Shown: in pieces, positions 30,915 through 35,630 of the stretch
Layout: each line of letters opens with the position of its first letter
Position numbering within the stretch: position 1 is the stretch's first letter
Assembly: GCF_058153355.1 (NCBI RefSeq)
Contig: NZ_CM177019.1
DNA length: 64,000 bases
Reading direction: 5' to 3' (one strand)
Made by a program: the position numbers and the translations under genes
The notes under the pieces: generated by a model
The model's database searches: none
What the model saw: the letters and a program-made list of their open reading frames with translations, nothing else
Told to the model about the DNA's origin: nothing

Positions 30915-33900
30915 ATGAACAAAATTTTTAAAGTTATCTGGAATCCAGCGACGGGCAGCTATAGCGTTGCCAGCGAAACGGCGAAAAGTCGCGGAAAGAA
31001 GAGCGGGCGCAGTAAGCTGTTAATTTCTGCATTGGTTGCGGGTGGATTACTCTCATCAGTTGGGGCCAATGCTTCGGTTTCACTTGACGGTGGTAAAAGC
31101 GCAGAGGCAACGCCACTCAGTAATGACTGGATTGCCATTGGTAAAGGTGCTGTCGCATCATCAGAGCCAAAGGGTTCAGGAACAGCGAATACAGGAAGTG
31201 TTGCGGTAGGGATAGGTTCGACCGCCGGGGTGGGCAGTACTGCAATTGGCTTCTCAAGTAACTCATCAGGAGAAAGATCGGTTGGCTTAGGGCAATCAAC
31301 GGTATCAACGGGTAGCCGAGCTATCGCCATCGGCAGTGCAGCTAAAGCCACCAGCGATTATAGCCTCGCACTGGGGAACGCTGCTCAAGCTAAAGGCGAA
31401 GGTGCCATGGCGTTGGGCAAGGATACGGTAGCAAGTGCTGAGTATTCTCTTGCATTAGGGAGATTAGCAAATGCGTCAGGAACTAACTCCATTGCCACAG
31501 GCAATGAGAGTACTGCTAGTGGTGAAGACAGCCTCGCAGTAGGTAGACTGTCCGTCGCCAGCGCCGCAAACGCGGTTGCAATCGGCGCAGAGACCGAAGC
31601 CGCTGAAAATGCAACGGCAGTGGGTACTAAAGCGGAGGCAAATGGGCTTAACAGTATCGCGTTGGGCTACGGGAGTATTGCTAATACCGATAACACGATT
31701 GCTCTGGGTAATCAAAGCCAGGCAATCGCTGCGGGCGCCATTGCCATCGGTCAAGGTAACAAAGCTGACGGCGTAAATGCAATCGCACTGGGAAATGGGA
31801 GTATTACCGGTGGGGCAAATGCCATTGCTCTTGGACAAGGCAGTTATGCCGGTTTAGAAAATGGCATTGCAATTGGTGCTCAGGCCACTGCTCAAGGTAA
31901 AAATTCAATTGCTCTGGGGGCTGGTTCTGTCGCGACTGAAGCGGATACTGTCTCCGTGGGTAACACAACAGCTCAGCGAAAAATTGTCAATATGGCAAAA
32001 GGTGATATCGACAATAACAGTACTGATGCCATCAATGGATCACAGCTTTATGCTATCAGTAAGTCAGTAGCAGATAATCTTGGTGGAGGAGCGACTGTCA
32101 ATTCACAGGGCGTAGTGACTTCCCCAAATTACAGACTGAAAAATGGTATTTATGGCAATGTTGGCGACGCCTTAGCGGATCTAAACACGAATACGATACA
32201 ATGGGACTCCCTTAAAAAGGGATATAGTGCGGCACATGGTACAGATGCCACCAGCAAAATCACTAACGTCACCGCTGGCGACCTTTCAGCCACCAGCACC
32301 GACGCCGTTAACGGTTCTCAGCTGAAAGCGACCAAGGACGATGTGGCGGCGAACACCACCAACATCACTAACCTGACGAGCGAAGTGGCTGGCAACACTA
32401 CCAACATCACTAACCTGACCGATGCCGTAGATAGTCTCAATGATGATGCCCTGCTGTGGAATGGCACCACGTTCAGCGCCGCTCACGGCACCGACGTCAC
32501 CAGCAAAATCACCAATGTCACCGCTGGCGAACTCTCTGACACCAGCACCGACGCCGTTAATGGTTCTCAGCTGAAAGCGACCAAGGACGATGTGGCGACC
32601 AACACCACCAATATCACTAATCTGACGAGCGAAGTGGCTGGCAACACCACCAATATCACTAACCTGACTGATACGGTGACTGACCTTAGTGAAGACGCCC
32701 TGAAATGGGACGATGCCGCAGGCGCATTCACCGCTGCACACGGCACCAACGCCACCAACAAAATCACTAACGTCACTGCTGGCGAACTCTCTGACACCAG
32801 CACCGACGCCGTTAACGGTTCTCAGCTGAAAACCACTAACGATAACGTGGCGACTAACACCACCAATATCACTAACCTGACTGATACGGTGACTGACCTT
32901 AGTGAAGACGCCCTGAAATGGGACGACGCCGCAGGCGCATTCACCGCTGCACACGGTAATAACACCACCAACAAAATCAGCAACGTACAAGCTGGCATAG
33001 TCTCCTCTGACAGCACTGACGCCATAAATGGCTCACAACTTTACGGTTTGGCTGATTCATTCACGTCCTATCTGGGGGGTGGTGCTGATATTAGCGATAC
33101 AGGTGTATTAACCGGGCCAACCTATAGTATTGGCGGCACTGAGTACACTAACGTCGGGGATGCTCTGGCTGCGATTAACACTTCATTTAGTGATTCTCTC
33201 GGTGATGCGCTGCTCTGGGATACAACCGCAGGCAAATTCAGCGCCAAACACGGCATTAATAATGATCCCAGTGTAATCACTGATGTTGCAAACGGTGCAG
33301 TCTCATCCACCAGTAGCGACGCTATTAATGGTTCTCAACTTTATGGCGTTAGTGACTACATTGCCGATGCTCTGGGCGGGAACGCTGTGGTGAATGCGGA
33401 CGGCAGTATCACCACACCGACTTATGCCATCGCTGGCGGCAGTTACAGCAACGTTGGTGACGCACTGGAAGCGATCGATACCACACTGGATGACGCCCTG
33501 CTCTGGGATGCAACAGCCAATGACGGTGCTGGTGCATTCAGCGCCGGTCGTGGGGTAGATAACACTGCCAGTAAGATTACTAACGTCGCAAATGGTGCAA
33601 TCTCTGCCACCAGCAGCGACGCGATTAACGGCTCACAACTCTATACCACTAATAAATATATCGCAGATGCTCTGGGCGGTGATGCAGAAGTTAACGCTGA
33701 CGGTACTATCACTGCGCCGACTTACACCATTGCGAATGCCGAGTACAACAATGTCGGTGACGCTCTGGATGCGCTTGATGAGAACGCGCTGCTGTGGGAT
33801 GCGACCGCCAATAACGGCGAAGGGGCTTACAACGCCAGTCATGACGGCAAGGCCAGCATTATCACAAACGTTGCTGATGGTAACATTGGTGAAGGTAGCA

Positions 33901-35630
33901 CCGATGCAGTGAACGGTTCTCAGCTGTTTAACACCAATATGCTGATCCAGCAGAACAGCGAAGTCATCAATCAGCTTGCCGGTAACACCAGTGAAACCTA
34001 CATCGAAGAAAATGGCGCGGGTATTAACTATGTGCGTACCAACGACAACGGCTTAGTATTCAACGATGCCAGCGCTTCAGGTATTGGTGCTACCGCTGTG
34101 GGTTATAACGCTGTTGCCTCTCGTGCCAGCAGTGTAGCCATCGGCCAGGACAGTTACAGCAACGTTGATACAGGTATCGCTCTTGGTAGCAGTTCCGTTT
34201 CCAGCCGTGTAATAGTTAAAGGTTCTCGTGACACCAGCGTATCGGAAGAAGGTGTTGTGATTGGTTATGACACAACTGACGGTGAACTGCTTGGCGCATT
34301 ATCAATTGGTGATGAAGGTAAATACCGTCAAATCATCAATGTTGCCGATGGTTCTGAAGCCCATGATGCCGTTACGGTTCGCCAGTTGCAGAATGCGATT
34401 GGTGCAGTAGCCACCACGCCGACCAAATACTATCACGCCAACTCAACGGCTGAAGACTCACTGGCAGTCGGTGAAGACTCGCTGGCAATGGGCGCAAAAA
34501 CCATCGTTAATGGTAATGCAGGTATTGGTATCGGCCTGAACACTTTAGTTCTGGCAGATGCGATTAACGGTATTGCTATCGGTAGCAACGCGCGTGCAAA
34601 CCATGCAAACAGCATTGCAATGGGTAATGGTTCTCAAACTACCCGTGGCGCACAAACTGGCTACACCGCCTACAACATGGATGCACCGCAGAACTCTGTG
34701 GGTGAATTCTCCGTAGGTAGCGAAGACGGTCAACGTCAGATCACCAACGTCGCGGCTGGTTCGGCTGATACCGATGCGGTCAACGTGGGTCAATTGAAAG
34801 TAACGGATGCGCAGGTTTCCCAGAATACCCAGAGCATTACTAACCTGAACAATCAGGTGACGAATCTGGATACTCGCGTGACCAATATCGAGAACGGTAT
34901 TGGCGATATCGTGACCACAGGTAGCACCAAGTACTTCAAGACCAACACCGATGGCGTAGATGCTAACGCCCAGGGTAAAGACAGTGTGGCGATTGGTTCT
35001 GGATCCATTGCTGCCGCTGACAACAGCGTCGCTCTGGGTACAGGCTCCGTGGCCAACGAAGAAAACACAATCTCTGTGGGTTCTTCTACCAACCAGCGCC
35101 GTATCACCAACGTTGCTGCCGGTGTTAATGCCACCGATGCTGTTAACGTTTCGCAACTGAAGTCTTCCGAAGCAGGTGGCGTTCGCTACGACACCAAAGC
35201 TGATGGCTCTATCGACTACAGCAACATTACTCTCGGTGGCGACAATGGCGGTACGACTCGCATCAGCAACGTTTCTGCGGGCGTGAACAACAACGACGCA
35301 GTGAACTATGCACAGTTGAAGCAAAGTGTGCAGGAAACGAAGCAATACACCGATCAGCGCATGGTTGAGATGGATAACAAACTGTCCAAAACCGAAAGCA
35401 AGTTGAGCGGTGGTATCGCTTCCGCAATGGCAATGACCGGTCTGCCGCAGGCTTACACGCCGGGAGCCAGCATGGCCTCTATTGGTGGTGGTACTTACAA
35501 CGGTGAATCGGCTGTTGCTTTAGGTGTGTCGATGGTGAGCGCCAATGGTCGTTGGGTCTACAAATTACAAGGTAGTACCAATAGCCAAGGTGAATACTCC
35601 GCCGCACTCGGTGCCGGTATTCAGTGGTAA
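30915..35630 (+). CDS. ehaG: trimeric autotransporter adhesin (UpaG/EhaG-like, YadA family)
   Basis: 1571 aa; extended signal peptide [21 protein letters not shown]; long Ser/Thr/Ala/Gly-rich head and stalk repeats; C-terminal YadA-type membrane anchor ending ...AALGAGIQW; located between yibL and lldP. Confidence 0.85.
32230..33010 (+). repeat. in-frame tandem repeats inside the adhesin stalk
   Basis: Repeated units ...KITNVTAG(D/E)LS(A/D)[19 protein letters not shown](A/T)NTTNITNLT(S/D)... occur three to four times with near-identical nucleotide sequence. Confidence 0.8.

Follow-up and report, generated by a model that had tools for sequence, protein, structure and literature searches.

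A predicted sadBA-type operon of Escherichia coli encoding a trimeric autotransporter adhesin with a modular stalk

The window analysed here, a 64,000-nucleotide stretch of contig NZ_CM177019.1 in RefSeq assembly GCF_058153355.1, carries at positions 30915-35630 an open reading frame (ORF) of 1571 amino acids (aa) that an initial annotation, made from the sequence alone, had described as a UpaG/EhaG-like trimeric autotransporter with near-identical in-frame tandem repeats. The ORF lies just downstream of a lipoprotein gene orthologous to sadB, and the pair is flanked by mtlD, mtlR and yibL (29252-29614) upstream and by lldP (37306-38982) and lldR downstream, so that the adhesin is found both between the mtl operon/yibL and lldPRD and next to a SadB-type partner. 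The features of the two genes are the following.

30188-30871, plus strand: orthologue of sadB, encoding a 227-aa inner-membrane lipoprotein predicted to assist the surface display of the adhesin (match to PDB 4C47, lipobox).
30915-35630, plus strand: intact trimeric autotransporter adhesin gene, 1571 aa (Pfam and PDB matches).
31095-32021, plus strand: YadA-like head, approximately residues 61-369; hypervariable and here a rare allele, judging by identities to homologues.
32226-32474, plus strand: stalk unit U1, 83 aa, 249 bp, with a DALL-type connector, a neck and a coiled coil that has asparagine at core position d (N-at-d) and a duplicated 14-aa heptad pair.
32475-32729, plus strand: stalk unit U2, 85 aa, 255 bp, built like U1 and aligning to SadA 2YNZ, 2YO2 and 3ZMF.
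32730-32942, plus strand: stalk unit U3, 71 aa, 213 bp, without one 14-aa (42-bp) heptad pair that is doubled in U1 and U2.
32943-33899, plus strand: three additional older stalk units, 285-300 bp long and 70-75% identical, with an FGG-type beta-meander in place of the plain coiled coil.
33900-35630, plus strand: conserved C-terminal third, comprising a second head, stalk and beta-barrel anchor (35445-35627), supported by its prevalence in genomes and the match to SadA 2YO0.

The product of the ORF combines the sequence hallmarks of type Vc (trimeric autotransporter) secretion. Pfam recognizes ESPR, the extended signal peptide, over residues 1-48 (E = 1.5e-15), the passenger contains YadA_head in 10 stretches and YadA_stalk with its neck/stalk motifs in 12, and the C terminus ends in YadA_anchor (PF03895, residues 1511-1571, E = 5e-19, 68.6 bits versus a cutoff of 22.7), which the anchor structures of Hia and YadA likewise match in a PDB search. 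Along the whole stalk the top PDB matches are GCN4-fused fragments of SadA (2YO0, 2YO3, 2YNZ, 2YO2, 3ZMF and 2YNY), with E = 1.3e-139 for 2YO0, and an identical protein stands in the public records as EGO8354594.1, 'adhesin [Escherichia coli]'. The ORF is thus identified as a trimeric autotransporter adhesin (TAA) gene whose product is predicted to form a homotrimer at the cell surface. The family assignment of the initial annotation therefore stands: the ORF coincides exactly with 30915-35630, its domains are those of TAAs, and it occupies the same locus as upaG and ECs_4480.

Tandem Repeats Finder (TRF), applied to the adhesin gene, returned a period of 249 with 2.5 copies, 85% matches and a score of 892, and a separate repeat search returned 3 copies in the stalk array; a tandem organization of this kind is far beyond chance. 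Cut at a conserved [ST]AAHG start, the array resolves into three in-frame units of 249, 255 and 213 bp over 32226-32942. The earlier description of three to four near-identical repeats of 230-240 bp was right about an in-frame tandem array in this area but needs correcting in its particulars, because there are three units, they measure 213-255 bp and they are 84-91% identical. Pairwise nucleotide identities are 85.8% for U1 and U2, 84.5% for U1 and U3 and 91.1% for U2 and U3, and the longest exact runs common to the unit pairs are 36, 37 and 71 nucleotides (nt). TRF also reported the internal 42-bp repeat of U1, at 32339-32419, and other strains carry amplified units of the U3 type. The unit that follows U3 shares only the first approximately 100 bp and then changes to the FGG-containing type; the FGG units align to the FGG regions of SadA (2YO2 and 2YNY) and AtaA (3WPA), and their number is constant across homologues (B100 B100 B95). 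Aligned residue by residue to SadA 2YNZ, 2YO2 and 3ZMF, U1-U3 run through a coiled coil, a '(E/D)DAL(L/K)W' connector, the 'AAHG…KITNV' strands, a neck and a further coiled coil. The terms DALL, neck and FGG are those of the published TAA dictionary, and their use here is backed by the alignment to SadA and AtaA structures. On sequence grounds, we regard the repeat units as ordinary structural modules of the predicted trimeric fibre.

Repeat number was compared across isolates, as the initial annotation had proposed, among the 120 best cluster representatives and in the 73 of them, all from E. coli, whose last 871 aa are at least 97% identical to those of the window protein. The 120 closest representatives are 1417-1987 aa long and carry 0-7 tandem units, and the 73 proteins carry 1-7 units on their nearly invariant C-terminal backbone; the unit classes, A and B, were assigned by simple regular expressions, and in divergent alleles a count may err by one. 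The closest complete genome, N96 (98.2% DNA identity over window positions 32634-44999), encodes a protein of 1820 aa with six units (85, 83, 71, 71, 71 and 71 aa) versus three here and with an identical architecture downstream; its four A71 units are 96-99% identical among themselves and 97-98% identical to U3, indicating that they were recently amplified. Strain 22AR0750 has two units, again with the downstream architecture of the window; there are likewise two in the Sakai protein and five in CFT073 UpaG. The length differences are quantized at 71 aa and 14 aa: for example, one 71-aa unit separates proteins of 1532 and 1603 aa, as it does those of 1560 and 1631 aa, and one 14-aa heptad pair separates proteins of 1589 and 1603 aa.

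The lipoprotein gene upstream matches the structure of SadB (4C47, 'inner membrane lipoprotein') over residues 23-227 with E = 2.6e-71. Its product carries an N-terminal lipobox, LTGC (…VLTGC), with aspartate at position +2, the inner-membrane retention signal; searches of Pfam and NCBIfam gave no match for it, and its homologues are annotated as 'SadB/YajI family lipoprotein' or DUF3251. The gap between the sadB stop and the adhesin start is 43 nt, implying that the two genes form an operon; the corresponding gap in Salmonella is 44 bp, and SadB has been proposed there to hold the three repetitive chains in register (PMC3953254). Upstream of sadB, where GC content falls to 33% over 29750-30499, the number of promoter-like sites is not above shuffle expectation, with one good consensus match:

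29957-29986, plus strand: candidate sigma-70 promoter, TTGACA-18-TAAAAT (11/12), placed in the AT-rich stretch 5′ of sadB.

The published repression of upaG by H-NS (PMC5012682, PMC12525524) would fit this 33%-GC region. Within sadB itself, positions 30286-30385 hold a 42-bp (14-aa) tandem repeat of 2.4 copies and 79% identity, in the segment 'LEKQQEQ…KIEI', which aligns with the coiled coil at the SadB N terminus in 4C47 and is another heptad-pair duplication in the operon.

By its position and sequence, the adhesin is taken to be the positional orthologue of upaG, ehaG and sadA. UpaG of CFT073 (c4424) sits in the same slot, in the order yibL, sadB-like lipoprotein, TAA and lldP, begins with ESPR like the window protein, and shares its architecture of a head, one FGG unit, tandem coiled-coil/DALL/neck units, three FGG units, a 290-aa second head and the anchor. 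The identity between the two proteins falls from 96% over the last 576 aa through 85% in the FGG array and 71% in the tandem array to 44% in the head, and UpaG is longer, 1778 aa with units of 78, 78, 78, 71 and 71 aa versus 1571 aa with units of 83, 85 and 71 aa. EhaG of O157:H7 strain Sakai (ECs_4480/Z5029), also a positional orthologue, is of similar length (1588 aa) and gives 90%, 76%, 66% and 50% for the same four segments, with a different unit composition. UpaG was reportedly described from uropathogenic CFT073 by Valle et al. in 2008, EhaG from enterohaemorrhagic O157:H7 by Totsika et al. in 2012, and SadA by Hartmann et al. in 2012; the asparagine-at-d motif is said to go back to Hartmann et al. 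in 2009.

The head is where this allele departs most from its relatives. Over residues 61-369 the identity is 44% with UpaG, 50% with Sakai EhaG and 64% with N96, and among complete E. coli genomes none exceeds 90% over the full length of 31040-31960, the best reaching 89.2%; one draft-genome protein (P0139) has a 98.9% identical head, on a single stalk unit. In the narrow sense of sharing the same passenger head, then, the protein falls outside UpaG/EhaG; it is the same gene with a rare, uncharacterized head allele. The initial megablast identity of only approximately 85%, which had hinted at another species, is low because the head and the array are polymorphic; an origin outside E. coli is rejected, since the records of the identical protein and of its flanks are from E. 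coli and the C-terminal third reaches up to 98.8% identity in complete E. coli genomes.

SadA and SadB of Salmonella enterica likewise pair a TAA with a trimeric inner-membrane lipoprotein in an operon between mtl and lld, and the SadA stalk, described as 'six consecutive repeats of 70-120 amino acids' with 55 to more than 90% identity (PMC3953254), resembles the stalk of the window protein, for which SadA fragments are the best structural matches throughout. SadA differs in belonging to another genus, in its size (approximately 147 kDa) and in its reported high conservation across S. enterica (PMC7247748); the E. coli gene, by contrast, shows strong polymorphism in head and unit number. Among more distant TAAs, tandem neck/stalk modules whose number varies between strains or species and sets fibre length are described for BadA of Bartonella and BatA of Brucella (PMC9602544, PMC7688925), and Saa, from Shiga toxin-producing E. 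coli, varies in size (PMC7247748), comparable to the variable module number here. The module types differ, with TrpRing-GIN-neck modules in Brucella and longer neck/stalk repeats in BadA, and there is no SadB-type partner.

The initial annotation had placed the gene and its lipoprotein correctly between yibL and lldP but had called them an accessory insertion, and this second part does not hold. That the pair was horizontally acquired as an island would agree with its absence from K-12, with the low GC (33-44%) over the upstream region and sadB and with the insertion sequence (IS) at the right edge. With the C-terminal third alone as the query and a coverage of at least 80%, 4147 of 5426 complete E. 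coli genomes (76%) proved to have it, each time as one copy on the chromosome, and the order mtlD-mtlR-yibL-sadB-TAA-lldP-lldR recurs in Escherichia sp. E1V33 and Pseudocitrobacter vendiensis and in part in E. albertii. A search of genome contigs retrieved only close relatives (8 loci) and no Salmonella, for which synteny is taken from the literature: Grin et al. (2014) report that Escherichia, Salmonella and Shigella have kept the sadBA operon between mtl and lld, with a deletion of it in K-12 (PMC3953254). In K-12 MG1655 window position 29615 is joined directly to approximately 36961, leaving yibL and lldP 371 bp apart, and the IS at the right edge, IS621, is a later insertion into a REP-like (repetitive extragenic palindromic) site that is absent from most alleles. 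Acquisition of the pair as an island is therefore improbable; it is variably present through loss, not insertion.

The high density of N-x-S/T sequons noted in the initial annotation is real for the adhesin as a whole, with 49 sequons versus 30.5 +/- 4.6 in residue shuffles, but the excess is confined to the 239-aa array, which holds 23 versus 7.8 +/- 2.2 expected; the remaining 1332 aa hold 26 versus 23.1 +/- 4.1, with no enrichment. In the coiled coil of the array a single sensible heptad phase was found (in U1), with V, I, V, I and V at position a and T, N, L, N and L at position d, so that heptads of the form V-x-x-N-T-x-x alternate strictly with I-x-x-L-T-x-x. Heptads of the form [I/V]-x-x-N-x-x-x, in which a triad of asparagines coordinates a buried chloride, recur in trimeric coiled coils (PMC12933892), and N-at-d coiled coils have been described for SadA, EibD and UspA1 (PMC3297439). 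U1 contains the same heptads, with asparagine at d and a hydrophobic a, here in strict alternation with L-at-d heptads, which identifies the array as carrying the N-at-d ion-binding motif and predicts anion binding. The spelling of these heptads, N(d)TTN(g)I(a)TN(c)L(d)T, yields three N-x-T triplets per 14 residues, and the whole sequon excess is therefore a by-product of the motif. The sequon density is accordingly no evidence of a glycosylation or antigenic role.

The sequons of the array might instead be functional in their own right, decorated by a cytoplasmic HMW1C-like N-glycosyltransferase, with glycans that aid stability or function or mask epitopes. The threefold density in the array, just given, would suit such a role, and HMW1C-like enzymes do modify the TAAs Knh and EmaA-like in Kingella kingae and Aggregatibacter aphrophilus (PMC4550697). 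Against it, the heptad string explains the excess in full and the rest of the protein has no enrichment, while one third of the asparagines lie at core position d, which is buried in the homologous SadA-type coiled coils (PMC3297439, PMC12933892). No HMW1C-like gene is evident in the window, as judged from collinearity with CFT073 and from Pfam on the extra island: the window is collinear with CFT073 except for a vgrG island and two copies of IS621, and the CFT073 counterpart contains no glycosyltransferases other than those of the lipopolysaccharide (LPS) core. Glycosylation as the reason for the sequons is thus very improbable. In E. coli, HMW1C homologues are known only in the form of the plasmid-borne EtpC of enterotoxigenic strains.

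Short-read assemblies classically go wrong at tandem repeats of approximately 250 bp, and the initial annotation had named an assembly artefact, with repeats collapsed or expanded, as what would undo its description; moreover, the matching public record is a draft contig of 17.8 kb. Over window positions 20915-35685 this contig (AAXEGZ010000083.1 of GCA_015332025.1) is the same as the window except for a single mismatch, which falls outside the gene. The contig terminates precisely where IS621 begins on its left side, while the window continues across the element; they are thus distinct assembly records in agreement with each other, and both give the same gene sequence. A third record (P0052) has a 1571-aa protein that differs in one residue. 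The units differ at 9-15% of positions and are therefore uniquely assemblable, so collapse is not expected, and no exact run exceeds 71 nt, well below ordinary read lengths. We give an artefactual unit count very little credence.

Taken together, we consider it very likely that the locus is an operon of the sadB-sadA type whose adhesin has a modular stalk, and that in-frame modules have been gained and lost by unequal recombination or slippage. Judging from the strain comparison, such gain and loss has taken place many times over. The initial annotation had linked the repeats to length variation by recombination; the variation in unit number is real, and its pattern, as expected for unequal recombination or slippage between in-frame modules, supports that mechanism. 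The units of 71, 83 and 85 aa and the 14-aa sub-repeat are in frame and keep the heptad register, and whole modules should therefore be exchangeable without breaking the fibre. An on/off phase-variation switch, like that of contingency loci with short repeats, would suit a surface adhesin, many of which are phase variable, but is next to impossible here, because the 213-, 249- and 255-bp units and the 42-bp sub-repeat are all multiples of three, all 120 homologues, with 0-7 units, are full length with signal peptide and anchor, and the outcome is a change in length with no shift of frame or promoter spacing.

How such an adhesin would work can be outlined from its family. The protein would be exported by Sec through its ESPR signal, and SadB at the inner membrane would help the three repetitive chains to stay in register; the C-terminal 12-stranded barrel, with four strands from each chain, would insert into the outer membrane in a Bam-dependent manner, and the passenger would fold from the C to the N terminus into a trimeric fibre of head, modular stalk, second head and anchor, with adhesion and aggregation mediated by the head. 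In the trimeric coiled coil the asparagines at core position d would coordinate an anion. Unequal homologous recombination or replication slippage would add or remove whole modules and leave head and anchor unchanged, and each such event would be expected to alter the distance to which the head is projected.

Several points weigh against this account or narrow it. The tract of 98% identity to N96 begins inside U2, at 32634; this jump in identity shows mosaicism to occur as well and suggests that mosaic alleles are also joined at the repeats, so that the differences in unit number between strains could stem in part from allelic exchange between strains instead of intragenic slippage. The longest exact runs of 36-71 nt mean that recombination within this array may be rare, and units that have diverged to 84-91% identity should make the array of this allele comparatively stable. 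Finally, with a head only 44-50% identical, the extracellular matrix- and cell-binding specificities published for UpaG- and EhaG-type proteins (PMC7247748, PMC12525524) are not transferable to this protein. A further idea, which we find rather unlikely, is that module number is selected to match the thickness of the surface polysaccharide of each strain (O-antigen, capsule), so that the head just clears the layer; the function of SadA is reported to be masked by LPS and fimbriae (PMC7247748), and the number of units ranges over 1-7 on backbones that otherwise share at least 97% identity. If it were true, the array would be a recombination-driven 'length dial' and not the result of neutral drift.

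Past the adhesin stop codon lies a mobile element that is not part of the adhesin system:

35690-36969, plus strand: IS621 (IS110 family), 60 bp past the adhesin stop, with a transposase ORF at 35882-36862.

The assignment comes from Pfam and NCBIfam (the 'RNA-guided/bridge RNA' transposase type) and the name from cluster members. The element sits in a REP-like target, ATCAGACCT^ACGG, and each junction has CT; the ends were set by means of the empty site in 22AR0750. The same site is occupied in N96 and empty in 22AR0750, CFT073 and Sakai, and short-read contigs break at the element. A scan of 29000-37500 with Rfam gave nothing at gathering thresholds, including for an IS621 non-coding RNA. 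A second copy, at approximately 50131-51573 and 97% identical to the N96 copy, breaks the collinearity with CFT073 and Sakai between yibQ/waaH-side genes.

Elsewhere in the window, an island of approximately 16.7 kb (6003-22696) that is absent from CFT073 lies between yibF and yibH. It holds two full vgrG genes (6148-8493 and 10511-12712), a VgrG C-terminal fragment (17043-18038) overlapping an ORF (17978-19492) with Pyocin_S and colicin/pyocin DNase domains, an 829-aa EF-hand protein, an N-acetylmuramidase/EF-hand protein (20224-21465) and a DDE transposase (15929-16597). The fragment and the DNase ORF may together be a frameshifted 'evolved' VgrG-DNase toxin, and the region as a whole resembles an orphan spike/effector island of type VI secretion. 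The LPS core (waa) block at 56924-63255 is collinear with CFT073 (97.7%) and not with O157 Sakai, and the core is therefore of a CFT073-like type. The core genes that flank the adhesin locus (26794-29615 and 36961-41833) are approximately 94% identical to K-12 and 96-98% identical to N96 and CFT073, which suggests that in E. coli the entire region from mtl to lld is divergent and rich in recombination. Near-identical E. coli adhesin/lldP contigs also appear under Bacteroidales, Oscillospiraceae, Bacillota and Mesobacillus maritimus among public genomes and metagenome-assembled genomes (L006, L007, L010 and L012); almost certainly this is E. coli DNA present through mis-binning or contamination.

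The system is already well described and its repeat variation already explained by structural modules; the practical value of the present locus is limited and no long-standing question is opened by it, its only unusual feature being the rare head allele. For fibrous adhesins more generally, a high N-x-S/T density can come purely from N-at-d heptads, and glycosylation scans should allow for that. The E. coli gene emerges as a mosaic in which a hypervariable head and a stalk with 0-7 modules that can be exchanged are combined with a C-terminal third that is conserved, and of UpaG/EhaG, which has been proposed as a vaccine and anti-adhesion target, only this last third makes a stable target.

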